In this document: in pieces, positions 1,782-53,686 of the stretch
Position numbering within the stretch: the stretch's first letter is position 1
Layout of the letters: every line of letters starts with the position of its first letter
NCBI GenBank assembly: GCA_024650005.2
Contig: CP122380.1
Coordinates: 1,344,001-1,408,000, forward strand
DNA from: Candidatus Bathyarchaeum tardum
Lineage (GTDB): Archaea; Thermoproteota; Bathyarchaeia; Bathyarchaeales; Bathyarchaeaceae
DNA length: 64,000 nt
Reading direction: 5' to 3'
The notes under the pieces: generated by a model
The model's input: only the letters and a program-made list of their open reading frames with translations
Told to the model about the DNA's origin: nothing
Database searches by the model: none
Program-made: the position numbers and the translations under genes

Positions 1782-1818
1782 GTTTCAATCCTTGTTTTGT
1801 TGAATTTCCTATTTTGAC
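1782..1818 (-). repeat. Solitary CRISPR-repeat-like unit, copy 1
   Basis: Minus strand reads GTCAAAATAGGAAATTCAACAAAACAAGGATTGAAAC: 37 nt ending in the canonical ATTGAAAC crRNA handle. 30 of the first 35 nt match 53651-53685. Confidence 0.75.
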
Positions 1819-1900
1819 ACGCGTTTTTGGCAGCTATTTTGGGCTACAATTATAAACCAATTAGTCTCTAGACTGATAATCAAAAAGGACGATTTAACCC

Positions 1901-3484
1901 GTGAGTACCTCATCAATCCTAGCCCAAAGTTCAGCCAAAAGTGGTCTTAATGTACTTTGGGGGCTGATATTTTCTTCAATAATAAGTGCAATTGGTACAG
2001 TAATTGTTGGGAACACTCTTGGTGACGAATTTGGTTTGATAGCAATTGCTCTTAGTGGTCCAACAATGATAACATACATCCGAGATTTGGGCATGGATCA
2101 GGCAATAATTAGACATACAACGCAATACCGAACCGAAAACAACATCGAAAAATTAAAGAACATAGTAATTGTTGGAACAAGTTTTGAAATTATACTTGGA
2201 ATAATTTTCACGGTGGTTTCCTTCTTTTTATCAGGGGTAATGGCAACATTACTGGAAAGACCAACAATAGTGCCCTTAATCCAAATTGCATCATTTACAA
2301 TATTAACAGGTGGCATTCTAAAAGCAGCCCAATCTGTGTTCATAGGCTATGAAAAAATGGAGTACCATAGTTTAACATTGGTAATTCAGTCAATTCTAAA
2401 AACTGCACTCATGGTGACGTTAGTTAATCTGAGTTTTGGACCTTACGGAGCAATTGTTGGACAAATACTTGGTTATAGTAGTGCCGCTTTGGTTGCTTTT
2501 GGACTTCTATATTTTATTGTTATAACAAAAATTCGGAAATTAAAAGGAAAAATACAATTTATTTCAACAATTAAATCCATGTTGACTTTTGGTTTGCCCC
2601 TTTCAATAGCTACAATTCTTGGTGGAATCTTAACTCAGTTTTTCATTTTTCTAACTGCAATTTACGTTAACGACGCGATGATGAGCAACTATTCGATGGC
2701 TCTAAACTTTGCGTCATTAGTAACCGTTTTTTCGGCATCTGTGTCTACGGTAATGTTTCCAACGTTTTCAAAAATTAAAGGATTATCAGACATGAAAACA
2801 TTACAACTTGTTTTTCAGTATTCCGTTAAATATACTTCACTTCTGATTATACCTTTGGCGTTTGCCGTAATCGCTTTGTCTATACCGGGAGTGGAAACCC
2901 TATTTCAAGATACTTATGAGTATACTCCACTGTTTTTGTCAATTTATTGCCTTTCTTTCATTTATGTTGCAGTTGGCAACCTTAGTGCAGGTTCTTTGAT
3001 AAGCAGTCAAGGAAAAACCCAAGTGAACATGAAAATTGCAATATTGACGTTCATTTTTGGCCTTTGTTTAGGTTTGGTTTTGATTCCATATTTTGGCGTC
3101 ATAGGCTTACTTGTATCTTACATATTTTCTGGTTTACCAGGGTTAATTTTAAGTTTAGTCTGGATAAAAAAACATTATGAGGCAACTATTGATTGGGTAT
3201 CATCAATTAAAATTGTATGCGTTTCAGCATTTTCAGCAACCATAACATATTTTGTAATTAATCAATTGAATCTTACTAGTTGGTTAGGATTAACCGTTGG
3301 AACACCCATTTTTCTCGGAATATATGTTGTTGTATCCCCAATGATAGGTGCAATAACGTATGGTGATACCAAAAACCTAAAAGATGCACTGAAAAATCTC
3401 GGTCCATTAGCGATTTTTATTGGTTTTCTGCTTTATCCTATAGAAAAAATTTCTAAAGCCAAACAGAAAAACAAAAACAATTAG
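1901..3484 (+). CDS. Oligosaccharide flippase (Wzx/MOP family)
   Basis: 527 aa with many TM segments; N-terminal DLGMDQAIIR and internal VMFPTFS motifs typical of polysaccharide exporters. Confidence 0.85.
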   Translation: MSTSSILAQSSAKSGLNVLWGLIFSSIISAIGTVIVGNTLGDEFGLIAIALSGPTMITYIRDLGMDQAIIRHTTQYRTENNIEKLKNIVIVGTSFEIILGIIFTVVSFFLSGVMATLLERPTIVPLIQIASFTILTGGILKAAQSVFIGYEKMEYHSLTLVIQSILKTALMVTLVNLSFGPYGAIVGQILGYSSAALVAFGLLYFIVITKIRKLKGKIQFISTIKSMLTFGLPLSIATILGGILTQFFIFLTAIYVNDAMMSNYSMALNFASLVTVFSASVSTVMFPTFSKIKGLSDMKTLQLVFQYSVKYTSLLIIPLAFAVIALSIPGVETLFQDTYEYTPLFLSIYCLSFIYVAVGNLSAGSLISSQGKTQVNMKIAILTFIFGLCLGLVLIPYFGVIGLLVSYIFSGLPGLILSLVWIKKHYEATIDWVSSIKIVCVSAFSATITYFVINQLNLTSWLGLTVGTPIFLGIYVVVSPMIGAITYGDTKNLKDALKNLGPLAIFIGFLLYPIEKISKAKQKNKNN

Positions 3485-3554
3485 GAAAATCTAATTTAAG
3501 CAATACCCCCTTTGTTTTAAGTTAATATCCTTTGTGAAGTTTGAGGTGAACTTT

Positions 3555-4661
3555 ATGGTTATTGTTTTGAATGACCCAAAAAAAGTCAAAGAAATTGATA
3601 AAAGTGATATGCTTGGTGATTTGGATAAAACTTCTGATTATTGTAAAGATGCCATTAAACAGGCACAAAAAGTAACTGTTGCCAAGAATGTTAAACCACA
3701 AAACATAGTTATTGTTGGAATGGGGGGTTCAGCAATAGGTGGAGAACTTCTCAAAGACTGGTTACGTGACACTCTTCCTATTTGTATCGACGTTTGTCGG
3801 GACTACACCCTTCCAGCTTACGTTAATGACAAAACCCTGATTATTGCAAATAGTTATTCAGGAAACACTGAAGAAACGTTAACTGCTTTTTTGTCTGCCA
3901 TACAAAAAAAATGTACAGTTGTTGCCGTAACTTCTGGTGGCCAATTAGGTGAATTCTGCAAAAAACTTCATCTACCTCACGTTTTGATACCGTCGGGTTT
4001 GCAGCCTCGGGCGGCTATTCCATACTTGTTTTTTCCAGTTGCAATTCTTTTACAAAAAATGGACATTTTATCAAATGTTGAAGATGAACTGGAAGAAGCC
4101 ATCAAAATTATTGAAGTAGTATCCAAAGAAAACAACGCAAATATCCCCATGAAAGATAACAAAGCAAAAACAATAGCTGAAAAGATACTGAACACTATTC
4201 CAGTTGTTTACGGGTTTAGGCAATACACTAGTGTAGCACATAGATTGAAGGCACAGTTTAATGAAAACAGTAAGGTTCCCAGTAAATCAGATAGTTTTCC
4301 CGAATTAAACCACAACGAAACCGTAGGTTATGATGCTCCAACAGAGTTGACCAAAAAATTGTCAGTTATTCTTATCAGAGACATTGATGAACCTTTAGAA
4401 ATAAAAAACAGGATAGAAACTACTGCTGAGCTGGTTCTCAAAAATGCCAATTCAATTTCAGAAATATATGCTAACGGTCAAAGCAAACTTGCAAAAATGT
4501 TTTCTGTTTTGTGTCTGAGCGATTACATAAGTGTTTATCTTGCAATTTTACAGAGTAAAGACCCAAGCCCCGTGAAAATAATTGACAAAGTAAAAGCTGA
4601 GTTAACCAAGAAAAACAGGATGAAAGAACATTTTGAAGCAGAGTTAGCTAAGTTGAAATGA
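3555..4661 (+). CDS. Bifunctional phosphoglucose/phosphomannose isomerase
   Basis: SIS motifs GMGGSAIGG and SYSGNTEET, plus FNENSK and PELNHNE; start moved to ATG 3555. Confidence 0.92.
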   Translation: MVIVLNDPKKVKEIDKSDMLGDLDKTSDYCKDAIKQAQKVTVAKNVKPQNIVIVGMGGSAIGGELLKDWLRDTLPICIDVCRDYTLPAYVNDKTLIIANSYSGNTEETLTAFLSAIQKKCTVVAVTSGGQLGEFCKKLHLPHVLIPSGLQPRAAIPYLFFPVAILLQKMDILSNVEDELEEAIKIIEVVSKENNANIPMKDNKAKTIAEKILNTIPVVYGFRQYTSVAHRLKAQFNENSKVPSKSDSFPELNHNETVGYDAPTELTKKLSVILIRDIDEPLEIKNRIETTAELVLKNANSISEIYANGQSKLAKMFSVLCLSDYISVYLAILQSKDPSPVKIIDKVKAELTKKNRMKEHFEAELAKLK

Positions 4662-4724
4662 ACAGTTTTATGTCTGTAATACTGTAGGACTGTATATTCC
4701 CAATTATTTGCGGAGCGTATACAA

Positions 4725-6269
4725 ATGAAACCCCCAAAAGACAAATATGAAATTATAAGCGAGATGGGAAAACGCCGAGGATATTTCTGGCCATCCTACG
4801 AAATATACGGAGGTTCCGGCGGATTCATTACGTATGGTCCTCTTGGTGCATTACTTAAACGACGATTAGAAGAAAAATTTAGAAAATTCTATCTTCAACC
4901 TTCAGGCATTGTTGAAATTGACTCTCCAGTTATCACGCCTGCAAACGTTTTGGAGGCTTCTGGTCACGTAGAAAATTTCAAAGAACCCACAGTAGAATGT
5001 GGAAAATGCAAAAACAAGTTTCGGGCTGACCATCTGCTGCAAGAATTTGCGAACATGACTGACACCCAAACTGAAAAACTTACGCTTCAAAATGTGGTAA
5101 CTGAACTTGAAAACTACAAAATCAAATGCCCAGATTGTGGCGGAATTTTTAGCAAAGCGGAACAGATTATGACAATGTTCCAAACCACTATTGGTCCTTA
5201 TTCTGACTCTATTGGTTATGGTCGCCCAGAAGCCGCTCAAGGAATTTTTGTCGAGTTTAAACGAATTTTTGAAAGTTCCAGAAGCCGTTTGCCTTTAGGG
5301 GTTGCCCAGATAGGGAGGGCTCTTCGAAACGAAATTTCTCCAAGACAAGGTCCAGTGCGACTACGAGAATTTACAATAATTGACATTGAGTTCTTTTTAG
5401 ACCCTGAAGACAAAAAATGTCCCTTACTAAGTGAGGTAGAAGACGAGACATTGCGTTTTTTGCTCGCAGAAAACAAAGTTAAGAACATTACAGAGCCCAT
5501 AGAAATTACAATCAAAGATGCATTGGCTAAAGGAATCATCAAAGAAGAATGGTTAGCCTATTTTATGGCGCAGGCTAAACGTTTTCTTGTGGAAATGGGG
5601 GTTCCCGAGGACAAACAACGTTTCATTGAAAAACTCGATTATGAGCGTGCTCATTATTCTCAAGAAGGTTTCGACCAAGAAGTATATCTGGACAGGTGGG
5701 GCTGGACCGAAGTTTCAGGGCATAACTACCGAACAGATTTTGACCTAAGCAGACACATGCAAGCAAGTGGAGTAGACTTAACTGCTTTTAAAGAATCTGA
5801 AGACGGTGGACGACGCTTTATTCCTCATGTTATTGAGCCCAGTTTTGGTTTAGACCGTCTAGTTTATGTTGCTTTAGAATATGCATATGCAGACAAAAAC
5901 AAACGAAAAGTTTTGGGTCTGCCTCGTGACCTTTCTCCAATTCAAATTAGTGTTTTTCCGTTAGTAAACAAAGATGGCTTGCCTGAAAAAGCAGAAAAAG
6001 TTTATCGCATGCTCCTTGACGAAGGCTTTACTGTAAACAAAGACGTTTCAGGTTCCATTGGTCGACGATATGCCCGAGCTGACGAAGCTGGAACACTACT
6101 GGGATTAACTGTGGATTATGACACTGTAGAAAAGAATACTGTTACTTTGCGTGACCGGGACAGCTGGAAACAAGTATTAAGCAATCTTACTGAGCTGCCT
6201 GAATTGCTGCATGGTTATTTCCGCAACAAACTAAACTTTGAAGATTTAGGAAAAATAATTGAACACTAA
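4725..6269 (+). CDS. glyS: Glycine--tRNA ligase (archaeal/eukaryotic type)
   Basis: YEIYGG, RPEAAQGIF, RNEISPRQG, HVIEPSFGLDR and anticodon-domain GSIGRRYARADE. Confidence 0.96.
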   Translation: MKPPKDKYEIISEMGKRRGYFWPSYEIYGGSGGFITYGPLGALLKRRLEEKFRKFYLQPSGIVEIDSPVITPANVLEASGHVENFKEPTVECGKCKNKFRADHLLQEFANMTDTQTEKLTLQNVVTELENYKIKCPDCGGIFSKAEQIMTMFQTTIGPYSDSIGYGRPEAAQGIFVEFKRIFESSRSRLPLGVAQIGRALRNEISPRQGPVRLREFTIIDIEFFLDPEDKKCPLLSEVEDETLRFLLAENKVKNITEPIEITIKDALAKGIIKEEWLAYFMAQAKRFLVEMGVPEDKQRFIEKLDYERAHYSQEGFDQEVYLDRWGWTEVSGHNYRTDFDLSRHMQASGVDLTAFKESEDGGRRFIPHVIEPSFGLDRLVYVALEYAYADKNKRKVLGLPRDLSPIQISVFPLVNKDGLPEKAEKVYRMLLDEGFTVNKDVSGSIGRRYARADEAGTLLGLTVDYDTVEKNTVTLRDRDSWKQVLSNLTELPELLHGYFRNKLNFEDLGKIIEH

Positions 6270-6358
6270 AAATGTTGTAGAACAGAAAAGCTAATTGTTT
6301 TTAAGAGACTCTCTCGTACTTAGATTTGTTTATAGCTTATTAGTTGTGGTGCGACAGA

Positions 6359-7018
6359 ATGGTATTTCCTGTAGAGACTGAAGAACGGGTAAAACGCAAG
6401 GCACTTGACGTTTCCAGAGACCATCTTAGAGAAGTAGTTGACATTTCACGCAAAATTTCTCAGCTAGTGTCATCATTTGTAAACGGCGATAAAGATTCAG
6501 TGAAACAGCTGTTTGAAGACATAAAAACTCGGCAACACAATGTTGATATTGCCCAACGCAACGTCTCACGAGAACTTGCGGAAATAGGCGCCATTTTGAT
6601 GAGCCGTGAAGACTTTTTGCGTTTCACTAACCTTTCAGGTAACATAGCCGATTATTGTGAAGGCATCGCTTTTCGTTTGCTTCAGATTATGGAGAAAGGC
6701 TGGAAAGTTCCAAACCAAATTAAAGATGACCTCGCAAAGCTTTCTGATGCAGTGTTTGATACCATCTTCAAACTACGAGAAACTGCAATGACGCTAAATT
6801 ATGGCACAAACAAGGCAATGGAAAAAGCCAGAGAAGTTGATGCCGCAGAAAGAATAGTTGATGATCTTTATCGTCAACTGGAAATAACCTTGATTGATAG
6901 CAAAATGGATTTTCCGTTAATGCTCTTATTATGGACTGTTGTTCAGCATTTGGAGGAAGCTGCAGATAAAGCCAAAGCTGCGTCTGATGCTGCGAGCATA
7001 CTGGCGCTCACAATTTAA
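6359..7018 (+). CDS. DUF47 / PhoU-like phosphate transport regulator
   Basis: All-helical protein with REDFLRF..IADY and E..VDDLYR..LEEAAD repeats. Confidence 0.8.
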   Translation: MVFPVETEERVKRKALDVSRDHLREVVDISRKISQLVSSFVNGDKDSVKQLFEDIKTRQHNVDIAQRNVSRELAEIGAILMSREDFLRFTNLSGNIADYCEGIAFRLLQIMEKGWKVPNQIKDDLAKLSDAVFDTIFKLRETAMTLNYGTNKAMEKAREVDAAERIVDDLYRQLEITLIDSKMDFPLMLLLWTVVQHLEEAADKAKAASDAASILALTI

Positions 7019-7032
7019 AATGTGACGTTTAT

Positions 7033-7593
7033 ATGCCAGAAAAGATTGAAACTGAACTGTTAGACAATTTTCTAATAGTCTGGAACCCAGAAGAAGGTTC
7101 CAATCTTTACAAAATGGGTTACTACGGCAAACCGGTGGGTATTGCTAAACCCAAAATTCCTGAATTTGATGTTCCCTTGATTCTTGATCTAATGGAAGGG
7201 GTTTATCTTCTTGAAACAAAAAAAATCAGTGTTGTCCATGGCGGACCTGAACACGCTCCAGTAAGTTTTTCTAAACTAAGAAAAAAAGCCCGAAAATTGT
7301 ATGAAGACTTTGAAGCAAAATATGCTGTTTACCGAGATTTACGGGGTCAAAAACTTATTGTCACGCCTGGAATGAAATTTGGTTGTGATTTTGCAGTTTA
7401 TCAACACGGTCCCGGAATAGACCATGCGCCATACATGATTACTGTGAGAAAAGCCAACGACGAAATTACAGCAACCGACGTAGTAAAAGCTGGACGATTA
7501 GCTACAACTGTAAGAAAACGGTTCATCGTAGCAATTCCAGATCTAGAAGCAGAAGATGTGCGTTACCTTATTTTCAAGTGGTTCAAAGCTTAG
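7033..7593 (+). CDS. endA: tRNA-intron endonuclease, catalytic (alpha) subunit
   Basis: VYRDLR..G.KFGCDFAVY..GPGIDHAPY..RLATTVRK with the Y/H/K triad; N-terminal GYYGKPVGIAKPK loop. Confidence 0.93.
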   Translation: MPEKIETELLDNFLIVWNPEEGSNLYKMGYYGKPVGIAKPKIPEFDVPLILDLMEGVYLLETKKISVVHGGPEHAPVSFSKLRKKARKLYEDFEAKYAVYRDLRGQKLIVTPGMKFGCDFAVYQHGPGIDHAPYMITVRKANDEITATDVVKAGRLATTVRKRFIVAIPDLEAEDVRYLIFKWFKA

Positions 7594-8080
7594 CTTTGCT
7601 TTTTTGGGTTTTTTCTTTAATTTTAGGCAAAATGGTTTTTTCGATCCACTGTTCACCTTGGGTAGTTAGCTTGAAATCGGGTTTTGCTGGATCAGGCTTG
7701 AAGACGATTCCCCGTTTCGTCATCTCGTTAAGGCGCGCAGGAACTACAGATTTTATTCCACTCGAAGCCAAAAGCTGTTTGACTTGACTGGCGGTGCTCA
7801 AGTTATTGTCTGACGCAAACAAGACCAAACCAATCGCCTCGTAATGGGTGAGTTTTTCACGAGTTGTAATAATCGGACCTTCTGTTGTGATTTCGATTAC
7901 TCCGTCAAGCAAAGTCTGCAGCGAGGGCGTCAAATTAGTAGAAATGAAACTACTTACTTCATTCATAAATTTCGGGGGCATATTTTTCAATGTTTTTAAA
8001 ATTTCCTCTGCACTTTCATCCTCAATCACAACTTCACCAAAAGGCGCCTTAACCCTAACCCGAATTTTTCCCATATTCAC
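7583..8080 (-). CDS. Hypothetical protein with C-terminal winged-helix-like domain
   Basis: VPARLNEM..RG..FKLTTQGEQW resembles the wHTH recognition helix and wing. Confidence 0.65.
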   Translation of the reverse strand: MNMGKIRVRVKAPFGEVVIEDESAEEILKTLKNMPPKFMNEVSSFISTNLTPSLQTLLDGVIEITTEGPIITTREKLTHYEAIGLVLFASDNNLSTASQVKQLLASSGIKSVVPARLNEMTKRGIVFKPDPAKPDFKLTTQGEQWIEKTILPKIKEKTQKSKAKL

Positions 8081-8293
8081 AGCATCCTACAACTAAAAAC
8101 ACACTTAACTTTATCAATCTTTTACTTTCTTTTACAAACAAAAAAATACAATTTCACATATTTACACAACATAATAGAAGTCTAATAGTAGTTAAATATT
8201 AAAAAAAGATTTTTTCTGAATTTTCTTCATAACCCACTTCTAAATTTTAAGTTCACAATGAACACTAAAACAATAAAAATGGAAAAAAGTTGG

Positions 8294-9049
8294 TTATTGT
8301 ACTGTATATCCGCCGTCTGCGACGATACATTGTCCAGTTATGAAGCTTGATTTGTCGCTTGATAGAAAGGCAACTAGGTTGGCGATGTCTTGGGGTTGTC
8401 CCCATCTGCCTAGGGGGATTGCTCGTTTGGTTTGTTCTTCGAGTTCTTTGTTTCCGGTTTTTGTTCCTGGGGTTTCTATTGGACCTGGAGCGATAGCGTT
8501 GACGTTAATTCCAAACTTTGCTAATTCTAGGGCAAGGGCTTTTGTGAATCCTACAATTGCGGCTTTGCTAGCAGAGTAATGGGTTAAAGCTGGAAAACCA
8601 ACGGTCGTGCCAGCTATAGAGGCGATGTTTACTATTTTTCCGTATTTTTGTTTTATCATCAATGGAGCAATCGCCTTTGTACAATGAAAAACACCGTTCA
8701 GGTTAACGTTTAGCACTTTGCTCCAGTCGTCTTTAGTTATATCTGTAAACATTTGCTGAGGAAAAATTCCCGCATTGTTTACCAAAATATCTACCCGTCC
8801 AAACTTTTTGCTGATTTGATTTATTGCTTGCTTTATGGCATCAAAATCAGTGACATCTAACTTAACAACCATTCCTTGTGAACCCATCTGTTCAATCTCT
8901 TTAACAACATCAGAAACATTTTCTGCAATATCAACTGCAACAACTTTCGCGCCATTTTGCGCTAGAACCAAAGCAACCTGTTTACCGATACCCTGACTGG
9001 CTCCAGTTACAACAGCGATTTTACCTGATAATTCACTCAAACATTTCAC
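8294..9049 (-). CDS. SDR-family oxidoreductase (FabG-like)
   Basis: TGASQGIG, LVNNAG, YSASK catalytic motif, VNAIAPG. Confidence 0.92.
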   Translation of the reverse strand: MKCLSELSGKIAVVTGASQGIGKQVALVLAQNGAKVVAVDIAENVSDVVKEIEQMGSQGMVVKLDVTDFDAIKQAINQISKKFGRVDILVNNAGIFPQQMFTDITKDDWSKVLNVNLNGVFHCTKAIAPLMIKQKYGKIVNIASIAGTTVGFPALTHYSASKAAIVGFTKALALELAKFGINVNAIAPGPIETPGTKTGNKELEEQTKRAIPLGRWGQPQDIANLVAFLSSDKSSFITGQCIVADGGYTVQ

Positions 9050-9181
9050 CTCCAGTTCTCAAAATTTGCATTCAACAACAAAATCCTATCATAATTTTCA
9101 ATGGATAATTTGTTAACATAATCTTACGTGTAAAGTGAATAAAATGTTTCCCATTCAACATAAATTAAACGTTCTTTACTT

Positions 9182-10111
9182 TCAAACCCCGAGCACAGCT
9201 AGCCATATGTTCAGGTAAACTATAGCGCCAACTGAAGAAATCAAAGTCAACGAAGCAACTGTTTCCCGATAAAAATCATAACGTTCACTTAAAACAGACA
9301 ACGCAACTGCAACAGGCATAGCATGCATAAGAATCAACACAGATTCTTCAATTATTGGCAACTGGAACAATGTCAAAGTAGCCAAAGCCACCAAGGGCAA
9401 GAAAATTATCCGTAAAAGGCTTAAACCAAAACCTAACTTTAGATTGGCATATTTTTTTCCATACAAAAATGCCCCTAACATAAAAACTGCAACCGCAGAT
9501 GTAGTGCCACCTACCATGTGCAAAAAAGTAGTCAAAGGAGAAGGAATTTCCAATCCAACTACAGAAATTAATATGCCAACAAAAATGGAAATAATCAAAG
9601 GATTCTTCACAAGGCGAATGCTAATATGTTTTAATCCCCCAAATTTTGAGGCTTTTTCAAGGCGATAAAATTCTAGTAACGCAATAGACAATGCTATTGA
9701 TGCGATTCCAATTGTTGCAGCTGCTAAGGTGGCTGTTTGTTCTATTTGAGCTGAAGGAAAAGCAAAGGTTACGAAAGGGATACCGAAAAATGCGGTGTTA
9801 CCAAATATTGTGCTTAATGTGACAAGATAAAACGTTTTTTTTGAAAATCTGATTATGATATAAAACAGAATAAAGATTGCCATAACCAAAAATATGGGAA
9901 TAATTCCAGCAAAAATAAACATTAAAGTTTCTGTAACAAAGGTTGTCTCAGCCATGTCAACAATAAACAAGGCTGGCAACGCAAAATAGTAAACATATGA
10001 ACTGAGGACCCGTTCGTCTCCAGTCTTTAGCACACCAAACTTTCTTGAAAGAAAACCAATGCCCATCAATAACAAAATGGGAACTGCTGTACCTATTAGT
10101 GCATCTGCCAT
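9182..10111 (-). CDS. AEC (auxin efflux carrier) family transporter
   Basis: About 10 TM; YFALPAL, GNTAFFGIPF, KNPLII, AMPVA motifs. Confidence 0.88.
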   Translation of the reverse strand: MADALIGTAVPILLLMGIGFLSRKFGVLKTGDERVLSSYVYYFALPALFIVDMAETTFVTETLMFIFAGIIPIFLVMAIFILFYIIIRFSKKTFYLVTLSTIFGNTAFFGIPFVTFAFPSAQIEQTATLAAATIGIASIALSIALLEFYRLEKASKFGGLKHISIRLVKNPLIISIFVGILISVVGLEIPSPLTTFLHMVGGTTSAVAVFMLGAFLYGKKYANLKLGFGLSLLRIIFLPLVALATLTLFQLPIIEESVLILMHAMPVAVALSVLSERYDFYRETVASLTLISSVGAIVYLNIWLAVLGV

Positions 10112-10190
10112 TGCTGTTCCTCAGTTTAGTTTTGTTCAATAATAAGAATAAGGTTTGCAGATTACATAAACCACAAGGGTGAGAATCATT

Positions 10191-12083: not shown

Positions 12084-12095
12084 GACTTTGTCTCC

Positions 12096-13427: not shown

Positions 13428-13509
13428 ACCAGTTTTCTCCAGTTTCTTATGCTCTCAACTAAACAAGCTGAAAACATCTTTCAATTATAAATCCCGTTTA
13501 TTAAAAGAT

Positions 13510-15099: not shown

Positions 15100-15154
15100 T
15101 AGGTTTCATCTACTGAACATGCACAAAACCTGTCAAATAAAGCCTACAGTTTTT

Positions 15155-15712: not shown

Positions 15713-15766
15713 GGTTCTCAGAAGTTTTATCTATACTTGCTCTTCTTTAGATTGTCGGCGGTCAAT

Positions 15767-41179: not shown

Positions 41180-41267
41180 CTGGCGTAAAAGAGGGCGAAT
41201 GATGTTAGAAGAAAACAATTTTTTATTATTCATCGAAAATCAACTAGATGAAAAGTAGGAAACATCC

Positions 41268-43241: not shown

Positions 43242-43245
43242 TCAC

Positions 43246-45826: not shown

Positions 45827-45873
45827 GCATTTCCCTCATTTATTTGATAATATTAATTGAATAAGCTAAAGCT

Positions 45874-46197
45874 TTATGTAATATTTAGTTGTTCACGATC
45901 GTGTACAGCCATCAAAAACTCAGAAGAGAAGTCTATTGCCTGTTTTGGGCAAATCTCTTTGCATTGACCACAAAATATGCACATATCTAGATTGAATGTC
46001 ACCTTTTTTTCTTCAGTCACAATTATTGCACCTGTAGGACAGGTTCTGGTGCATAATAAACAACCAATGCATGCTAAATAATTAAAAAGTATTTTTCCTC
46101 TGAAGTTCTTAGAAACTGGAACTAATTCATTACTTTTTGTGAAAGATTTAACCGTTATAGGCTTATGGAATAAAGATCGTAAGGCATCTCGAATCAT
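45874..46197 (-). CDS. 2x[4Fe-4S] subunit (NuoI/EchF-like)
   Basis: CIGCLLCTRTCP and CIFCGQCKEICP. Confidence 0.92.
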   Translation of the reverse strand: MIRDALRSLFHKPITVKSFTKSNELVPVSKNFRGKILFNYLACIGCLLCTRTCPTGAIIVTEEKKVTFNLDMCIFCGQCKEICPKQAIDFSSEFLMAVHDREQLNIT

Positions 46198-46220
46198 TTT
46201 ACAAGTTCACTCAAGTTAGA

Positions 46221-47192
46221 TTATAGACCCATGATTAAAGATACTGCTGAAAGGGTAAGCAGTATTATAGGAATTGCCCAATATAACTTAAATGCTTGCC
46301 CTATTTTTAGCCTTGCGAAGAGTGTCCTAGGCAAAGTTACAGTGAAAAACATGACAAGTAACGCAATAAGTAAACTTACAAACAAATTAAACCATGTATT
46401 ATAGTCAGGAAAGCCGTTAAAGTATGCAGGAAAATATAGAAAGAGCATTGTTGAAAGAAACGTCAAAGAAAATGCTAATACAGATTTAGCTAGCTTCATC
46501 AAAGCTAGGTATGGTCCGCCATATTCAATCAGTGTTCCATGAACAATCTCAGTTTTTGCTTCTGATATATCAAATGGTACGACCCCTACTGCTGCAGGAA
46601 TACAAAAAATAAAAGTCGCTGCTGCAAATGCAATACTAAGATTAGAAAATGCCAGAGGCATTCCAGCGGTTTCTTGAGCGACCAAAATGTCGTAAGAAGT
46701 AACAGAAAAACCTGTTTTGAAGGAAACAAATCCGATTGATATAATCATTGGAACTTCATAAGACATTAGCATAACGACTGCGCGAGAAAATCCAAGTGTT
46801 CCAAACGGATTTCCAGATGATGAACCACCAAACATGATCATCAGTGAAGGCATTGCTAACAAATATAATACAAGGATAAGGTCTCCCATGAAATTGACTC
46901 TTAGTAATATTGAAAGAAAGGGTATCATTGCACCTAAAACAGAACAAACTACAGCAATAATAGGTGCAATTGTAAATATTGAAGATATAGCGTTATTGGG
47001 AATTATTCTCTCTTTTCCAAACAGTTTTATTAGATCATAAAAAGGTTGCAACAATGGAGGTCCTATTCTGTTTTGCATTCGCGCATGAAGTTTTCTGTCG
47101 ATTCCCGCAAATATAAGACTGATTGCAACTATGAGTGGAAAAGAAACAACAATTAGAATGACTGTTATTGCTAGGTCGACAGTGTTCATCAT
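46221..47192 (-). CDS. NuoH/EchB/HyfC-like membrane subunit
   Basis: DRKLHARMQNRIGPP..QPFYDLIKL..KE, PFDISEA..E...EYGG. Confidence 0.92.
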   Translation of the reverse strand: MMNTVDLAITVILIVVSFPLIVAISLIFAGIDRKLHARMQNRIGPPLLQPFYDLIKLFGKERIIPNNAISSIFTIAPIIAVVCSVLGAMIPFLSILLRVNFMGDLILVLYLLAMPSLMIMFGGSSSGNPFGTLGFSRAVVMLMSYEVPMIISIGFVSFKTGFSVTSYDILVAQETAGMPLAFSNLSIAFAAATFIFCIPAAVGVVPFDISEAKTEIVHGTLIEYGGPYLALMKLAKSVLAFSLTFLSTMLFLYFPAYFNGFPDYNTWFNLFVSLLIALLVMFFTVTLPRTLFARLKIGQAFKLYWAIPIILLTLSAVSLIMGL

Positions 47193-47198
47193 CTTTTT

Positions 47199-48335
47199 TC
47201 ACCTATCAGCACAACTCATACACGGGTCAATAGAAGAAACAATTACAGGTATGTCAGCAACTTCTCTTCCTACAAGTAAATTTTTCAAGCAAAGTATGTT
47301 TGCTAATGTTGGTGTACGAATTTTTAATCTATTTAAACCGTTTTTTCCATTGCTCTTTACAAAATGCAAAAGTTCCCCACGTGGAGCTTCGATTCTTGAG
47401 ATTGCTTCGCCCTCGGGAATTTTTCGTGCTACTTTCAGAAGCGAATTGTCTATACCCAATTGACCAGAGGGCAATTGATCTAATGCAGTTTGAATAAGGT
47501 TAACAGATTCAAACATTTCTAAGACGCGGACTTCTGCTCGCGAAAGGGCATCTCCTTTTGTTTTAACAATTTTAGAAAAATTTTTTTTTAGGTCTCCATA
47601 TGCCGCGTAAGGATCATCTTTTCGTACGTCCGTTTCTACACCCGAGGCTCGAGCTGTAGGACCTACAACACAAAGCATTTTTGCGACGTCTTTACTCAAT
47701 ATGCCTGTGGCACTTAGCCTTTTTTCTACAGTTTTGCTGTGAATAATGTCAAGCAGGTAACTGCATATTTTCTCAGCTTCTTTCATAAAGTTTTGCAGGT
47801 CATTCATTGAGTCAGGGGTTAAATCATTACGGACTCCCCCAAATGTGTTAATGGAGTGGTGAACACGATTACCGGTTATTCTTTCAAACCAATCCATTAT
47901 TTTTTCGCGAACACGCATGCTATACATAAAAGCAGTGTCAAACCCTATTCCATAGGCTGCAACTCCAATCCAAAGCAGATGGCTGTGTAGTCTTTCCATT
48001 TCTGATAATATTGTTCTAATATAAGATGCACGTTCAGACAGTTCTATTCCCCCAATTTCTTCAATAGCTTGAACAAAACATGTAGAATGACTGTGTGAAC
48101 AGATTCCACATATTCTTTCAACAAGATATGTTGTTTGAACAAGATTTCGGTTTTGAGCTAGTTTTTCTATTCCTCTATGAACAAATCCAAGTCGCAGATC
48201 AACATCTACAATTTTTTCCCTATTGAGAGTTACTTTAAAGTGCACAGGCTCTTTTAGGGCAGGATACACTGGACCAACAGGTATAACAGATTTAGTGTAA
48301 CATGGTTCGTCCTTTTTGTCTTCCAATATGTTCAC
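47199..48335 (-). CDS. Group 4 [NiFe]-hydrogenase large subunit
   Basis: HRGIEK, L1 ERICGICSHSH, EAPRGEL, L2 DPCMSCADR at the extreme C-terminus. Confidence 0.94.
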   Translation of the reverse strand: MNILEDKKDEPCYTKSVIPVGPVYPALKEPVHFKVTLNREKIVDVDLRLGFVHRGIEKLAQNRNLVQTTYLVERICGICSHSHSTCFVQAIEEIGGIELSERASYIRTILSEMERLHSHLLWIGVAAYGIGFDTAFMYSMRVREKIMDWFERITGNRVHHSINTFGGVRNDLTPDSMNDLQNFMKEAEKICSYLLDIIHSKTVEKRLSATGILSKDVAKMLCVVGPTARASGVETDVRKDDPYAAYGDLKKNFSKIVKTKGDALSRAEVRVLEMFESVNLIQTALDQLPSGQLGIDNSLLKVARKIPEGEAISRIEAPRGELLHFVKSNGKNGLNRLKIRTPTLANILCLKNLLVGREVADIPVIVSSIDPCMSCADR

Positions 48336-48754
48336 CCAAATTTTTTCTGAATAGCCAAGGCTACTCCTTGTATTATTGCTTCAGGTCTAGGTGGACAACC
48401 ACTTACATAAGCATCAACTGGAATAATTCCATCTACTGGACCCTCAATTGAATAGCTGCCCCTAAATGGTCCACCAGATAAAGCGCAAGCTCCGACTGCT
48501 ACAACTGCCTTTGGTTCAGGCATTTGATTATATATCATTGTCATTCTAGAAAGCATTTGACGAGTTACGGGACCAGTAATCAACAGAACATCAGCATGGC
48601 GGGGGGAACCAACAAGAACACACCCTAACCGTTCAACATCATAGCGTGGAGTTATAGTAGCCAATATTTCAATGTCGCATCCGTTGCATGAACCACTGTT
48701 TAAATGGAAAAGCCATGGTGATTTTATTCGAGACCGTTTTGTGATTCGTCCCAT
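48332..48754 (-). CDS. Hydrogenase small subunit (NuoB/EchC-like)
   Basis: SCNGCDIE, SPRHADVL, GACALSGG, GCPPRPE. Confidence 0.94.
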   Translation of the reverse strand: MGRITKRSRIKSPWLFHLNSGSCNGCDIEILATITPRYDVERLGCVLVGSPRHADVLLITGPVTRQMLSRMTMIYNQMPEPKAVVAVGACALSGGPFRGSYSIEGPVDGIIPVDAYVSGCPPRPEAIIQGVALAIQKKFG

Positions 48755-49407
48755 GAAGATTAGATCCTAAATTTAATTTGTTAAGTACCACATTGGCAAC
48801 ATTAAAAATGTTTTCTTAATTTTTTGATGTACATGCTGGAATGGCCCCAAATTAGATAGCTTATTTTGAAAATCAGGTTCTCATACTTTATCTGTAGCGT
48901 CAAACAGGGCAGGTTATTCCCTGCGAGACAAGATGAGCAGAAGATCCTTGAATCACTCGTTACAATCGTTGACTTAAGCTTTGCTTACAAAATACTTAAA
49001 CAATGTTTTCATACCTCAGGTCTTAAGAAATTACCCAAAAACCGATGGTTCTCGTTCCCACATTCATAGTAATGCCCATGAAAGCAGTTTGCAGTCCTGA
49101 GAGAGAAAACCAGAATTTTAAACATTAACAAAAAAAGAAAATTATGCATGATTAAAAAAGACCAAGGACTCCACATGAAGCGTACTAAGCAGATTTTCTA
49201 AGAGTTACAAATAAAACGTCAATAAGAAATCGACCACAAAACCATGTTTCCTTTATTGAGATTATGTGCACTTCATTAGTATAAGGTCAAGCTGAGAATT
49301 GGAGTTGCAATTAGCCAACATAACGATTCTAACCTTAGAAGGCTATTTTGAAGCATAAGTTTTCCGTTAAAAATTAAAAGAAAGAGAAAAAATTCTCTTG
49401 AATGTGT

Positions 49408-50148
49408 TTATACGCGTCTGCGTTTGACTCGGCTGCCAGCGCTTCGTGCTGCGATTAGACCGACTTTTTTGCCGGGTGGCGCATTTCGTGAAACTGTGGT
49501 TACTTTGCGTCCACCTTTCTTGCTGCTACCGTAAGGGTGACATGCAGCTATCATGGCGATACCTCGGGTTCGAGGATACAAGTGGCCTTTAGCTTTCATT
49601 AAATGATATTTTGTTCCTGCTTTCAGGAAGGGTTTTTCTGTTCGTCCTGCACCTGCAACTATTCCGACTGTTGCTCTGCATAGGCTGTTAACTTGTTTGT
49701 TTCGTTTTGATGGAAGTCTCACTATTGTTTTGTTTCCAACAGAATGTGAAATGATAGTTGCATATGCTCCAGATGCGCGAACCATTTTTCCTCCGTCTCC
49801 GGGGGATAATTCAATGTTGCAGACCATGGTTCCTTCTGGAATCTTGCCGATTGGAAGAACGTTTCCGATATCAACAGCAGCTTCATCGCCGACCTGTGTG
49901 GGTTGACCTTCGTATGCTCCTTCGGGGGCTACTGTGTAGTATGTGTCTCCACTTTCTAGTTTGATAGAAACCATAGGTGCGCCTCTTCCGGGCTCGTGCA
50001 TTATGTTTGTTATTTGCCCGTTTACCACTGCTTTGTTTTCAGTGATCGCTACTGAAGGATATCTAACAGGGGCTACACGCTTGTGGGTTGATGCCCTAAA
50101 AGTTGAGGAGCCTCTTCCGCGTCTTTGCACTCGTATTCGTTTTCCCAA
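49408..50148 (-). CDS. rpl2: 50S ribosomal protein uL2
   Basis: MGKRIRVQRRGRG, HEPGRGAP, GRTEKPFLKAG, VSRNAPPGKKVG. Confidence 0.96.
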   Translation of the reverse strand: MGKRIRVQRRGRGSSTFRASTHKRVAPVRYPSVAITENKAVVNGQITNIMHEPGRGAPMVSIKLESGDTYYTVAPEGAYEGQPTQVGDEAAVDIGNVLPIGKIPEGTMVCNIELSPGDGGKMVRASGAYATIISHSVGNKTIVRLPSKRNKQVNSLCRATVGIVAGAGRTEKPFLKAGTKYHLMKAKGHLYPRTRGIAMIAACHPYGSSKKGGRKVTTVSRNAPPGKKVGLIAARSAGSRVKRRRV

Positions 50149-50203
50149 TTGTCACATCTTCCTTTGAAACGTAGGTTCTACAGACGAAACAGTTTAAATA
50201 CTT

Positions 50204-50926
50204 TTAGTTTTCTGCGCTCCTAGAATAGCGCCTAGTCACCAAAGTATGCACAATTAAAATAACGCCGATAACTGCAACAATACCTAAAAGCACATAATTG
50301 AACAGAGAAACCATGCTCTGAAGTTCAACTGGGATTTCACCTGTAGCACGGTAAGAATCAAGGAGTTCTTGAAACGTTAACCCAAAATAGGTTCCTATGT
50401 ATGTGTAAAATAGTGTACGGGGAAATGTGCCAATTATTGTAGGAATCAAGAAACTTTTTAGTTTCATTGTAGTCAGACCCGCACCGTATGATATTGCATC
50501 AAAGGAGATGAAAGGCGCAAACCTTCCAAGAAGAATTGCCCAGCTTCCCCATCGGCTAACCCAGTTGTCTGCGAATTGAATGCCTTTTTCGCCTATTAGT
50601 TTGATTGCAAGGTTCCTGCCGCCTTTTTTTGAAATATAAAAACAAACAATGGATGCAACTATTGAACCTAATGATCCAACAATCCACCCAAAGGGAAAAG
50701 GGAAAGCCAAACCGGCTACAATCAAAACCAACATAGAAGGAATTGGCATTGCGATTGCTTGAATAACCATTATTCCAAACAACAGGGGAAGCCCTCCTGC
50801 TTGAAATGATTCGATTACTATGATTAGAATGTCATAAACAATTTCTGGAAAAATAAACAAAACAGCAGAAGCAGCGATAGCTAACAAAAAAACAAGAACT
50901 GAAAGAAATTTGGTGGAGCTGGGCAT
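50204..50926 (-). CDS. DedA/TVP38 (VTT domain) membrane protein
   Basis: PIPS....VAG, RFAPFISFDAISYGAGLT, GTFPRT. Confidence 0.88.
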   Translation of the reverse strand: MPSSTKFLSVLVFLLAIAASAVLFIFPEIVYDILIIVIESFQAGGLPLLFGIMVIQAIAMPIPSMLVLIVAGLAFPFPFGWIVGSLGSIVASIVCFYISKKGGRNLAIKLIGEKGIQFADNWVSRWGSWAILLGRFAPFISFDAISYGAGLTTMKLKSFLIPTIIGTFPRTLFYTYIGTYFGLTFQELLDSYRATGEIPVELQSMVSLFNYVLLGIVAVIGVILIVHTLVTRRYSRSAEN

Positions 50927-50949
50927 CTGATGACCAGACGCTCCTCGTT

Positions 50950-51210
50950 TTAGAGGATGCCCAGTTTGATCGCAAGATCAGATGCTTTATGTTCAGGAGT
51001 TAACCTGACAAACGCCTTTTTTTCTCCCTTGGGAGTTATGGTAGAGTTGACGCTTAACACGTCAACATCGTAGAGTTCTTCTACTGCCCGTTTGATGTCT
51101 GCTTTGGTTGCTTTTTTGCTGACAATAAAGACTAGTTTGTTTTCTGTTTCAAGAATGCGGCTGGTTACTTCAGTCATAACCGGATAACAGATAGCTTTGT
51201 ATGCATCCAT
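50950..51210 (-). CDS. rpl23: 50S ribosomal protein uL23
   Basis: YPVMTE, NKLVFIV..KATKADIK, KKAFVRL; start at ATG 51210 right after the rpl4 stop. Confidence 0.95.
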   Translation of the reverse strand: MDAYKAICYPVMTEVTSRILETENKLVFIVSKKATKADIKRAVEELYDVDVLSVNSTITPKGEKKAFVRLTPEHKASDLAIKLGIL

Positions 51211-51211
51211 T

Positions 51212-51994
51212 TTAGTTTCCTCCAAATACAGTTTCAACTTTTTCAAAAGCTGAATTCGTCCAAACTGTTAATCGTCCCATGTGAGTTCCTGGCGCCAAAA
51301 GTTCAGCGTTCAAGTTCTCAACAGAAACAACATCCAAACCAGGAAGGTTTCGTGCAGCTTCAGCAACTCCATCGTTTTTTGCTATTACTAACAAAGGACC
51401 AATGGCTTGTTTCATTTTGCGTCCTCGCATTTTTCCTTTTCCTGCTCGGACTTTGCGGCTTTCTTTTACACGGAAAATATCTGCCCATACCCCAAGGTGA
51501 GACAATGTTTCTTCAACTTCTTGGGTTTTTTTTAGACTTTGAATTTCGTCTACAACTACCAACGGGAAGTCTGGGACTTCATCTACCATATGACCTCTAG
51601 CTGATACTGTTTCTTTGGAAGCTGTTGCAGCAACAGCAGAACGTAATGCCAGATTCATTTCTTTTTTCGGCAATTTCTTTTTAATTTTCTTTATAGATTC
51701 TGGAGGATGAGCTGATCGACCACCTACTACTCCAGGAGCAAAAGCTGCCCGTTGCCCTCGTTCTTTAAATCGGGGAACACGAGAAATGCCTAAACCAGCG
51801 TGGCGAGATTCTGCAGTGTTTTTCTTTCCAGCCATTGGGTCTCGGCCTTGAGGCTGATACTTGTGGGACTGGATTGTAACTACTGCACGTTTTACTACAT
51901 CTGGTCTGCTGATTGTGTTGAATATTCGGGGCAGATTAAGTTGGCTGACTTCTTTGCCGTTTAGATCAAATACTTTAGCTGAAATTTTACCCAT
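51212..51994 (-). CDS. rpl4: 50S ribosomal protein uL4
   Basis: QGRDPMAG, GGRSAHPP, RAGKGKMRGR, LAPGTH.GRLT. Confidence 0.96.
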   Translation of the reverse strand: MGKISAKVFDLNGKEVSQLNLPRIFNTISRPDVVKRAVVTIQSHKYQPQGRDPMAGKKNTAESRHAGLGISRVPRFKERGQRAAFAPGVVGGRSAHPPESIKKIKKKLPKKEMNLALRSAVAATASKETVSARGHMVDEVPDFPLVVVDEIQSLKKTQEVEETLSHLGVWADIFRVKESRKVRAGKGKMRGRKMKQAIGPLLVIAKNDGVAEAARNLPGLDVVSVENLNAELLAPGTHMGRLTVWTNSAFEKVETVFGGN

Positions 51995-52008
51995 TGTTTA
52001 TTCACCAA

Positions 52009-53016
52009 TTATTTTTGTGTAGACTCCAAAGAAATGTAAGTAATGTTTGGGGATACTTCAGCAGTTTTAGTTGGAGGACGAGCTGGAAACCGTAATGTTA
52101 CAACACGTTTTGCTGGACCTGGAAGGCTGCCATCAACTAGTAAGTAAGTTCCTTTAACTTCTCCATACCTTACAAAACCGCCTTTTGGAGTAATTTCTTT
52201 TCCGTCAATTCCAATTTTTAGGATACGTTTATTGTATTCTGTTCTTTGGTGGTAACCCATCTGTCCAGACCGGGGAACACTGTAAAGTACTCGGGCAGGT
52301 TTCCATGGAGCAATTGCTGCAACAGCTCGTTTTCCTTTTCTGGATTTACGGGGCAAAATGTTGACGCCCCAGCGTTTTACTGGTCCTTGGAATCCTTTGC
52401 CTTTTGTTATTGCTATTGCGTCCATGAATTGTCCTTCTTTAAAGATGTCTGTTACTGAAACAGTTTTTCCGAGTAAACCTTTTGCGTAATCAAACTGTTC
52501 TTGGATTGAACCGCCATCAACCTTGATTTCTGCGGAGTCAGGTTTTTTCTTTGGCACAGATGCAAGGCGGGGTTGTGTTGCTACTAGAACGCGGATTTCT
52601 GCAATTTTTTCGAGGTTTTCTTCAATTTGTAAGAGTTTTTCCACGGTTTTGAATTCTTCAGGCAACACAAACGCTCGTTCAAAATCTTTGGGCGGATTTT
52701 GCATCCATGCTTCCGTGAAAGTGTGTAGACCATATTGGTCTTTTGTGTAAGTGCGAATTGCATACACAATTACGGGGGGAACTTCCAATATTGTTGCTGG
52801 ATGAGAAGTTTCTTTTCCCATATGTAGGGAGCCGGGTTTGTCCTCTATCATGTTGATGTGAGTCATTCCAGCTTTGTAACCCATGAAACCGAGCATTGTC
52901 GGTCCTTCTTCTACTTTAGGCCAGAAACGGATTCTTCCTACCGTTCGTTTGGCACGGCCTCTTGGTAAATACGCTAATGAACCATGCTTAGGCGCAGACT
53001 TTTTTCTATGACCCAT
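52009..53016 (-). CDS. rpl3: 50S ribosomal protein uL3
   Basis: HGSLAYLPR, GYKAGMTH, TKGKGFQGPVKRWG, GQMGYHQRTEYNK. Confidence 0.96.
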   Translation of the reverse strand: MGHRKKSAPKHGSLAYLPRGRAKRTVGRIRFWPKVEEGPTMLGFMGYKAGMTHINMIEDKPGSLHMGKETSHPATILEVPPVIVYAIRTYTKDQYGLHTFTEAWMQNPPKDFERAFVLPEEFKTVEKLLQIEENLEKIAEIRVLVATQPRLASVPKKKPDSAEIKVDGGSIQEQFDYAKGLLGKTVSVTDIFKEGQFMDAIAITKGKGFQGPVKRWGVNILPRKSRKGKRAVAAIAPWKPARVLYSVPRSGQMGYHQRTEYNKRILKIGIDGKEITPKGGFVRYGEVKGTYLLVDGSLPGPAKRVVTLRFPARPPTKTAEVSPNITYISLESTQK

Positions 53017-53166
53017 GCTAATATCCTTCTTGTGTTTTAGTTACAGTTCGTCTTTTCCAATAATAACGTCAGGTTATAAACTTTATCTATTCGGTGGATA
53101 TATCGCCACTGTTTTACCGATTTTTTGCACCCTTCCCCCTTTTTTATTTAATTAGGAGACTCTAAA

Positions 53167-53391
53167 ATGGGACAGGAAAAAGAATTAACAATACTAATTG
53201 TTTGTTTATTCTTTGGACTTTTGGTAGTTGGTGCAGTTCTTAACAATATCAACACGCCATTAAACACCGAAGGCTTACTGTTCAGTATGGGGATAGAAAC
53301 AGCAGGTTCTAGCATATATCATAGCTTTGTTTTTTTAGTGCTATTGTGGTATTACGTGGCATTGTATTTTTCATTTGTTATTTTTATCTAA
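53167..53391 (+). CDS. Small two-TM hypothetical protein
   Basis: AGGAG RBS-like sequence upstream; two hydrophobic helices. Confidence 0.45.
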   Translation: MGQEKELTILIVCLFFGLLVVGAVLNNINTPLNTEGLLFSMGIETAGSSIYHSFVFLVLLWYYVALYFSFVIFI

Positions 53392-53650
53392 ACAGATATG
53401 CAGACTATTTACAGACAAATACACAGCGAAATTCTTACGGCTAACGGCTGACACACATTAATTAATTATAGAAAGCAAAAATCGCTTAAGTTTTGCTTCT
53501 TTTTGCCCTAAAAACAATTATGCTTCTTAATAGAGCAAACCACAAAAATTTTTGTAGAAAATGGCACATCTTTATAAGGGCTTCAATAAAAAGAGATGGC
53601 GAAAAACAAGACACGGAGTAAAAAACCAAAATAAGCTGAAAATAGATACT

Positions 53651-53686
53651 GTCGAAATAGAAAATCCATTAAAACAAGGATTGAAC
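53651..53686 (+). repeat. Solitary CRISPR-repeat-like unit, copy 2
   Basis: GTCGAAATAGAAAATCCATTAAAACAAGGATTGAAC; preceded by an AT-rich leader-like region with TTTATAAG at 53571; similar to 1782-1818. Confidence 0.72.

Follow-up and report, generated by a model that had tools for sequence, protein, structure and literature searches.

Orphan or remnant CRISPR arrays that outlive their cas genes are a generally described phenomenon. CRISPR repeats have also reportedly been seen at the boundaries of large inversions in Thermotogales, an observation said to go back to DeBoy et al. in 2006. Here, we analyze two solitary CRISPR-type repeat units, termed c1 and c2, in a 64,000-nt window (the whole stretch of DNA under study) of the archaeon Candidatus Bathyarchaeum tardum, corresponding to positions 1,344,001-1,408,000 of its single-contig genome (contig CP122380.1 of assembly GCA_024650005.2; 2,152,572 bp, 38.1% GC, estimated completeness 97.9%). 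Other described systems bear on such units. One report deals with viral repeats that stand alone and with how they act as RNA anti-CRISPRs, or Racr (PMC10651486), and another with the integration of prophage PhiAP1.1 into CRISPR repeats of Streptococcus pyogenes with loss of spacers (bioRxiv 10.1101/2020.10.09.333658). CRISPR RNA (crRNA)-like regulators and CreTA modules are reported to sit in CRISPR-cas loci and act via Cas effector complexes (bioRxiv 10.1101/2023.03.03.530964). For viruses of Bathyarchaeia, one study reports mini-arrays of two repeats and one spacer or four repeats and three spacers, with repeats identical to those of host arrays, along with head-tail proviruses that carry integrases (PMC10848311). 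We propose, with a probability of roughly 0.7, that c1, c2, and three further units elsewhere in the B. tardum genome are decaying, non-functional relics of lost type I-B arrays and the scars of recombination between arrays and viruses or between arrays and the chromosome.

The unit c1 is a 37-nt repeat on the minus strand (window 1782-1818) and c2 a 36-nt repeat on the plus strand (window 53651-53686), both of the CRISPR-DR7 type. A re-reading of the sequence reproduced the positions, strands, and letters given by the first-pass annotation, which had been made from the sequence alone, and its figure of 30 identities over 35 nt was recovered when 35 nt from the start of c1 were compared without gaps with every position of the genome: the match to c1 itself was 35/35, to c2 30/35, and to a third unit 28/35, and no further position exceeded 25/35. 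Within the window, a 15-mer common to c1 and c2 has two exact copies; if up to 2 mismatches are allowed, it has 5 matches versus 0.85 expected, a count reached in 1 of 100 shuffles. The two units are also intergenic as claimed, c1 lying between a ribbon-helix-helix gene and a polysaccharide flippase gene and c2 between the rpl3 operon and cbiO. Three DNA runs contain the c2 region, with shares of 1.00, 0.93, and 0.80; among RNA runs, none with this region was found.

The count of two units given at first proved too low, since the whole-genome check identified five units of the DR7 type and thereby bore out the idea of a genome-dispersed family. The additional members are c3 (genome 1,329,134-1,329,170, minus strand), c4 (717,458-717,493, plus strand), and c5 (335,125-335,162, minus strand). 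Against the gathering score of 37 bits of the Rfam family RF01320 (CRISPR-DR7), c2 (39 bits) and c3 (45.8 bits) pass, whereas c1 (35.1 bits), c4 (32.1 bits), and c5 (26.1 bits) fall below, their E values in a search of 18 kb ranging from 8.5e-4 (c1) to 0.22. Judged by the 5' halves, c1 groups with c2 and c3 with c4, and c5 stands apart; these sub-types, at least three in number, point to more than one source array. None of the five has a second repeat within 1.5 kb, even at E ≤ 1, so that c1 and c2 are indeed solitary, and a 14-mer chain scan detected no CRISPR array, that is, no succession of at least two spaced repeats, anywhere in the genome. The sole match of that scan was a ~100-nt tandem repeat at genome 1,535,330-1,535,560 that reads as coding sequence.

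Several features of the units indicate decay. In the Rfam alignment, c2 carries a 1-nt deletion and c5 a substitution within the 3' 8-nt handle. The 5-bp hairpin typical of the family is the minimum-energy fold in c2 (-3.3 kcal/mol), c3, and c4, and is weakened or lost in c1 and c5; in c1, where the best fold reaches -0.9 kcal/mol, the canonical hairpin is not the minimum-energy structure and its stem is weakened to a G-U pair. By comparison with shuffled sequences, these folds have no energetic advantage (z from -1.1 to +0.2); they show only which units keep the family hairpin. Together with the loss of 18 nt from the leader of c2 (see below), the handle mutations of c2 and c5 and the weak stems of c1 and c5 point to sequences that are wearing away.

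The statement that the units are not accompanied by cas genes held when extended to the entire genome. The families PF01881, PF10040, PF03787, PF01905, and PF05107 (Cas6, RAMP, DevR, Cas_Cas7) had no match in the complete genome, Cas2 had none either, and the Cas3 model TIGR01587 returned only sub-threshold helicase matches. A weak Cas6b_C match at genome 1,761,774-1,761,971 (18.5 bits, 3 stop codons) was not supported by tblastn with six Bathyarchaeia Cas6b proteins and was dismissed as noise. With 30 Bathyarchaeia type I-B Cas proteins as tblastn queries, only two Cas1 C-terminal fragments scored below E 0.01 (genome 649,132-649,308 and 1,502,718-1,502,891). Thus, we found no Cas6, Cas6b, Cas7, Cas5, Cas8b, Cas3, Cas2, RAMP protein, or intact Cas1 in this single-contig genome. 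The two fragments are 57-77% identical to the stand-alone Cas1 of the genus, which is present at full length in four congeners; the two of these that were tested showed no match to RAMP, Cas7, Cas6, or Cas6b and no Cas2 above the cut-off. On this pattern, the stand-alone Cas1 would be casposase-like and the fragments possibly remnants of casposons.

The lineage does possess a cognate system, as had been predicted, and it is of type I-B with Cas6b: Bathyarchaeia arrays with the DR7-type repeat adjoin a Cas8b-Cas7-Cas5-Cas3-Cas6b-Cas1-Cas4 operon. The assignment of the repeat to an archaeal class stood as far as its occurrence in archaea is concerned but not as an exclusive one. In an exact-pattern scan with one genome per species, long arrays of this repeat type were found in Bathyarchaeia, Thaumarchaeota, and Methanophagales, and likewise in Brocadia, Latescibacterota, and other bacteria. 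Among the 25 genomes of the genus, matches above the Rfam threshold occur in three, namely the present genome (G000), G009, and the sister species G016, which has regular arrays with two near-identical leaders. A further source of comparison is a 15,920-nt contig, C20 (L185, G037:C20), with flanks 91.5%, 96.7%, and 82.5% identical to the B. tardum genome, eight open reading frames (ORFs) in type I-B operon order, a homologous leader, and 48 repeats. Its Cas3 and Cas6b were recognized by family matches and the six other ORFs named by size and order. The metagenome-assembled genome that holds this contig (G037, titled Tenericutes) has no match to the rpl3, rpl4, or cbi genes of B. tardum; the contig is probably mis-binned, and we used the contig alone and not G037 as a relative.

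Leader sequence links the solitary units to such arrays. Upstream of c2, 139 nt (window 53512-53650, plus strand) form a diverged CRISPR leader homologous to the leaders of G016 and C20. Leader and repeat together are 71% identical over 195 nt to the G016 leader at the end of contig C29, and a 99-nt part of the leader is 76.8% identical to that of C20. In the alignment, the leader of c2 lacks 18 nt that are present in the leaders of three relatives. It contains a TATA-box-like motif, TTTATAAG (window 53571-53578, plus strand), whose position is conserved in the leaders of the relatives and which could serve as a promoter element. The DNA directly after c2 is homologous to the G016 spacer between flippase and cbiO, so what follows the repeat is native intergenic DNA and not a CRISPR spacer. 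With its whole leader and one repeat, the unit c2 reads as an array reduced to zero spacers. At c1, only a stub of ~26 nt remains (window 1819-1844, minus strand), which, in blastn and the alignments, resembles the repeat-proximal end of the leader; the blastn match (81% over 61 nt) continues past the repeat by 24 nt of the G016 leader, and the stub directly abuts the conserved flippase promoter. No leader was found at c3, c4, or c5. In the alignments, c1 and c2 resemble the units of G016 no less than they resemble each other.

The two units mark the ends of an inversion. Between them lies a 51-kb block of core genes (window 1902-53088), beginning with the flippase, PGI, and an aminoacyl-tRNA synthetase and ending with the ribosomal protein operon, that is reversed relative to its counterparts in related genomes. 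The block is collinear with G016 C16:1-38103 plus C40:8757-11693 (75-88% identity, blastn) but runs in the opposite direction. In that species, C40:1685-8554 corresponds to genome 1,336,677-1,342,831 of B. tardum in forward orientation, C40:8757-11693 followed by C16:1-38103 to window 53,088 down to 1,902 in reverse, and C16 from 38201 onward to the window from 53,745 onward, again forward. G010 (contigs C6 and C10) shares the gene order of G016, the block being reversed there too relative to B. tardum. The units sit at the two block junctions in inverted orientation, c1 on the minus and c2 on the plus strand, with leaders facing inward.

In order to read the polarity of this inversion, we searched the genomes of the genus with the right flank of the block. 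In 8 of the 24 other genomes, a single contig has the flippase (PGI) end next to the right flank. In six of these (G004, G018, G001, G005, G036, and G007) the distance between the starts of the flippase and of the right flank is 196-1,558 nt; in G016 the cbi operon lies between the two, and in G010 the flippase is deleted. Conversely, rpl3 and the right flank shared a contig in none of the 8 genomes whose contigs were compared. The order in B. tardum is therefore the derived one and, judged from these gene orders, the inversion arose in this lineage. The junctions of G016 are free of any repeat, and six relatives among those with the ancestral junction have no DR7 match anywhere. More generally, no unit has a conserved position in the 24 other genomes, of which just two (G009 and G016) contain strong DR7 matches. 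A G009 mini-array beside the flippase gene was considered as positional conservation of c1 and rejected, as orientation and spacing differ and G009 is rearranged at that place. Of the remaining units, c4 lies 335 nt beyond iscU, at the point where homology to G016 and G010 ends.

A second association, with viral DNA, is seen for c3 and c5. Outside the window, the genome harbors an apparently intact head-tail provirus (~619,146-653,436) with matches to a head scaffold/cement protein (PHROG, E 4e-17) and a major head protein (E 9e-8), and with weak matches to portal and tail proteins; this provirus contains no DR7 unit. We compared the 1232 unique spacers of DR7 arrays with the genome and found that 8 match (E ≤ 1e-3, at least 26 nt), all of them within 620,835-653,436. 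Six of them come from C20, whose array has 47 spacers, and the remaining two belong to the three spacers sampled from G016. By these matches, the resident provirus is a target of the immunity of relatives. The triplets upstream of the eight protospacers, at the place of the protospacer-adjacent motif (PAM), are TTA (four times), CTA, ATA, TTG, and CAG; the apparent PAM is thus TTA in four of eight and NTA in six. Dozens of matches of 16-20 nt spread over the genome at E ≤ 0.01 were treated as chance. One of the two Cas1 fragments is located inside the interval matched by these spacers. A hairpin-bearing sequence occurs in direct orientation at both 619,146 and 645,952, and its two copies share their flanks in the manner of attachment sites.

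The unit c3 is a whole repeat between two provirus-like pieces. Its 3' end is followed directly by 504 nt that are 79.8% identical to the provirus and start inside the gene for the major head protein, which is thus truncated, and its 5' side adjoins a 53-nt piece with 96% identity to the right end of the provirus. In the intact provirus, the fusion point is preceded by TTA, a triplet that makes up 2.0-2.3% of all triplets there; this would be expected if the 3' junction arose by recombination of a spacer with its own protospacer. A former spacer upstream of c3 was also considered and rejected: the nearest NTA lies 34 nt from the repeat, whereas related spacers are 35-38 nt long. The unit c5 has as neighbors, at 69 nt, a 176-aa ORF with a partial integrase match (24.0 bits versus a Pfam cut-off of 27.1 bits) and, at 1.1 kb, a provirus-like fragment. 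In IMG/VR, 15 viral contigs (L126-L140) also contain lone units that share the 3' 25 nt of the repeat family; in 13 of them a single unit is present, and the other 2 have an additional, degenerate one. The unit of L130 is full-length, equals the repeat of the C20 array, and is similar to c3 and c4. A tblastx comparison of these 15 contigs with the genome gave no match at 1e-8, indicating that they are not relatives of the resident provirus. A 12-13-nt inverted repeat encloses the unit in two of them, L127 and L138.

Since CRISPR arrays often break or collapse in assemblies, we compared the contigs of three sequencing runs (X1-X3) with genome 1,328,001-1,347,000, an interval that includes c1 and c3. 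A collapsed array at c1, a possibility raised in the first-pass annotation, is contradicted by a 2,400-nt contig of X2 (record 16) that bridges c1 as a single repeat with 0 differences and by a 2,811-nt contig of X3 (record 23, 11 differences), which comes from a different study. Contigs of X1 (record 1) and X2 (record 9) bridge c3. X3 has almost no cover on the c3 side of the interval, and X1 none on the c1 side, and no contig joins the two sides. In low-depth contigs of X2 (~450 versus ~3,900), a near-identical repeat recurs after 40 other letters; such repeat-spacer-repeat joints mean that the community of X2 contains a genuine array of this repeat, be it in another organism, an element, or a minor subpopulation.

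What, then, are these units? The idea that multi-spacer arrays were collapsed into single repeats during assembly has in its favor the known behavior of arrays and the scope of the contig comparison, which covered c1 and c3. It is extremely unlikely, given that contigs from independent runs pass through c1, that c3 is bridged in X1 and X2, and that the flanks of c2 run straight into native sequence homologous to G016. Very improbable, too, is the explanation originally preferred, a dispersed family of Cas6-processed small RNAs acting in trans as regulatory guides, decoys, or seeds of new arrays, with a cas locus elsewhere in the organism. Five dispersed members of one repeat family, the retained TATA-like box of the c2 leader, the hairpin kept in c2, c3, and c4, and the low-depth array of a near-identical repeat in the same sample would all agree with it. 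Nevertheless, the complete genome lacks cas6, cas6b, and any effector gene, and mutations in c2 and c5 affect the 8-nt handle, which a Cas complex would grip. Furthermore, positions are not conserved across the genus, where strong DR7 matches are confined to two of the 24 other genomes, and c2 is followed by native intergenic DNA without a spacer-like guide. With no Cas6b in the cell, transcripts of the units could not be processed into crRNA-like RNAs.

Two other explanations deserve more weight, although we consider both unlikely. Some or all of the units could have been delivered by mobile elements, either as virus-borne repeat mimics (RNA anti-CRISPRs) or as attachment or recombination sites by which host CRISPR arrays are entered, and left behind in decayed proviruses. 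The provirus-homologous DNA on both sides of c3, the neighborhood of c5, the lone units of the 15 viral contigs including the C20-type repeat of L130, and the viral solitary units and prophage integrations documented in the reports cited above speak for such a delivery. We nevertheless judge it improbable: c1 and c2 are placed among core genes and carry leader sequence of host arrays, the intact provirus has no DR7 unit, the viral contigs have no detectable similarity to the genome, the integrase match stays below the Pfam cut-off, and a capsid gene interrupted as at c3 would not be tolerable for a working virus. Alternatively, c1 and c2 could descend from two old, independent arrays in inverted orientation, between which homologous recombination flipped the block and each of which then shrank to one repeat, with no staggered break and no duplication. 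This scenario has a slightly better chance, albeit still a low one, as G016 with its two arrays and near-identical leaders shows that multiple arrays per genome are normal, as c1 and c2 resemble each other no more than they resemble the units of G016, and as CRISPR repeats reportedly lie at inversion boundaries in Thermotogales. It is at odds with the ancestral junction of flippase and right flank, which has no unit in G016 and which occurs in six further relatives without any DR7 match, and with a c1 leader of just ~26 nt butted on the conserved flippase promoter. A half-spacer sum that fits G016 only when 25-26 nt are left out (95 versus 97 nt) also counts against it.

We therefore favor the interpretation as evolutionary remnants of lost arrays, which the first-pass annotation had offered as its second choice, there in the sense of collapsed array remnants. 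The absence of cas genes and the decay of the units in B. tardum, together with full arrays and cas genes in close relatives, argue for it. In the simplest account, a single array upstream of rpl3 would have been cut at its leader-repeat junction, with the cuts staggered by ~63 nt, and a second break would have fallen at the flippase/cbi junction of the chromosome. Re-joining in the reverse direction and fill-in repair would then have left an inverted duplicate of ~63 nt at each end of the block, and this would explain why the whole leader is found at c2 and a stub at c1. The staggered-break model would also explain why the two half-spacers of B. tardum sum to the spacer length of G016 only when the 25-26-nt stub is left out (95 versus 97 nt, by our own count). 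The other units would be scars of recombination between arrays and the head-tail virus family. A more specific version, in which c1 and c2 are the target-site duplication of one intramolecular, transposition-like event at the leader-proximal repeat that flipped 51 kb of core chromosome (a staggered cut, possibly made by the adaptation integrase on chromosomal ends) and in which c3 and c5 are footprints of virus-array recombination via spacer-protospacer homology, is attractive yet improbable.

Several observations weigh against the relic interpretation or its details. Transcription and function are possible, and the leader of c2 keeps its TATA-like motif and two other conserved blocks. Over its 3' 17 nt, the repeat is intact in c1 and c3 and almost intact in the other three units, which could reflect constraint and not youth. 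The stub at c1 is short and, by our own count, matches the leader at ~20 of 26 aligned positions with gaps; the case for a duplication of 63 nt over one of 37 nt is consequently not strong. As c1 and c2 are only ~76% alike by the same kind of count, they could be old paralogous arrays that recombined and were both later lost in relatives. The 5' junction of c3 shows no PAM at the distance of a spacer, so a model with capture via two spacers does not fit. Finally, the contig comparison covered c1 and c3, and the low-depth contigs of X2 may stem from a cas-bearing subpopulation or an unassembled replicon of this organism.

The feature is of a known kind, with two attractive details: the proposed breakpoint duplication and the PAM-flanked virus junction. 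It provides a complete-genome picture of the end of CRISPR immunity in an uncultivated archaeal lineage, in which no cas genes remain, each array has eroded to one repeat, a virus targeted by relatives persists as a provirus in the chromosome, and the surviving repeats lie at a virus junction and at the ends of a large inversion. If the two details hold true, nature would have recorded in them two processes for which most evidence comes from laboratory studies of bacteria; under the transposition-like version, arrays and the viruses they target would have rearranged an archaeal chromosome and dismantled the host's own immunity. The case is also a warning that lone CRISPR-like repeats should not be read as regulatory RNAs when a matching Cas6 is missing from the same cell.

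Other features were noted around these loci. Next to c1, a small cassette with the ribbon-helix-helix gene (window 798-1601; RHH_1 Pfam match) is 76% identical to G016 C16:118714-119529. As this copy is 80 kb away in G016, the cassette may be mobile. It belongs to a segment of ~2.9 kb adjoining c1 (genome 1,342,832-1,345,781) that is absent from the junction in G016 and found at this junction in B. tardum only; the segment encodes a 403-aa membrane-like ORF, small ORFs, and the ribbon-helix-helix protein. On the side of c2, the cbiM-cbiQ-cbiO cobalt-transport operon (window 53,725-56,400) is located between the flippase side and the right flank in B. tardum and G016 only, and is not at that junction in G010 and six other congeners. 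A 38-nt near-perfect palindrome with a 12-bp stem of TTG/CAA triplets and a G-rich loop has 18 copies in the genome (91-100% identity, several flank sub-families), for example at 259,210, 350,262, 619,146, 645,952, 1,329,191, and 2,099,589, and at eight sites between 811,747 and 839,957; it could be a REP-like element, a terminator, or the core of an attachment site. Paralogous clusters of large secreted or surface-like proteins (genome 1,331,640-1,334,657 and 324,372-331,131), up to 94% identical over 1.1 kb, are present a few kb from c3 and c5. In G009, contigs C13 (L021, 9707-9991) and C14 (L022, 9841-9979) carry mini-arrays of two and three repeats whose 'spacers' of 65-98 nt contain strong GGAGG/CCTCC hairpins. 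The hairpin-bearing spacers are alike at both loci and are not ordinary spacers; one of them reads as a Shine-Dalgarno-like stretch followed by an 11-codon ORF.

Among the systems described at the outset, c1-c5 resemble CreTA modules and crRNA-like regulators as stand-alone repeat-like elements outside ordinary arrays. Those elements lie within or beside a cas operon, whereas the B. tardum genome has no cas locus. With viral solitary units and Racr, they share the single repeat that has no other repeat and no cas genes beside it, and the DR7 lone units of the 15 IMG/VR contigs are of the same form. Racr are, however, described there as encoded by viruses, prophages, or plasmids in hosts with CRISPR-Cas of the matching subtype. 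In contrast, c1 and c2 are chromosomal, sit among core genes, and carry array leaders in a genome free of cas genes; c3 and c5, adjacent to provirus or integrase fragments, give a mixed picture. The Bathyarchaeia viruses infect the same host class and include head-tail proviruses, but their mini-arrays are on viral genomes, whereas the present units are lone repeats in the chromosome of a cas-less host.

With PhiAP1.1, B. tardum shares the joining of a temperate virus to an array and the shrinkage of arrays, often to a single repeat beside viral DNA, as at c3 and c5. That prophage splits a repeat by site-specific recombination at an 8-bp core, whereas c3 is a whole repeat whose junction falls at a PAM-flanked site in a capsid gene, and the intact provirus of B. 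tardum is bounded by a different, hairpin-bearing sequence and not by the halves of a split repeat (attL and attR). Accordingly, c3 looks more like a product of recombination between spacer and protospacer. As in the Thermotogales case, CRISPR sequences coincide with the breakpoints of an inversion between related genomes; unlike there, one repeat is found per breakpoint, a full leader contrasts with a 26-nt stub, and the ancestral junction that was inspected has no repeat. Orphan arrays are matched in the occurrence of repeats with or without a leader in a cas-less genome, in relatives with full systems, and in decay by point mutation. What sets B. tardum apart from them is that every array is down to a single repeat, leaving five dispersed remnants of at least three sub-types.

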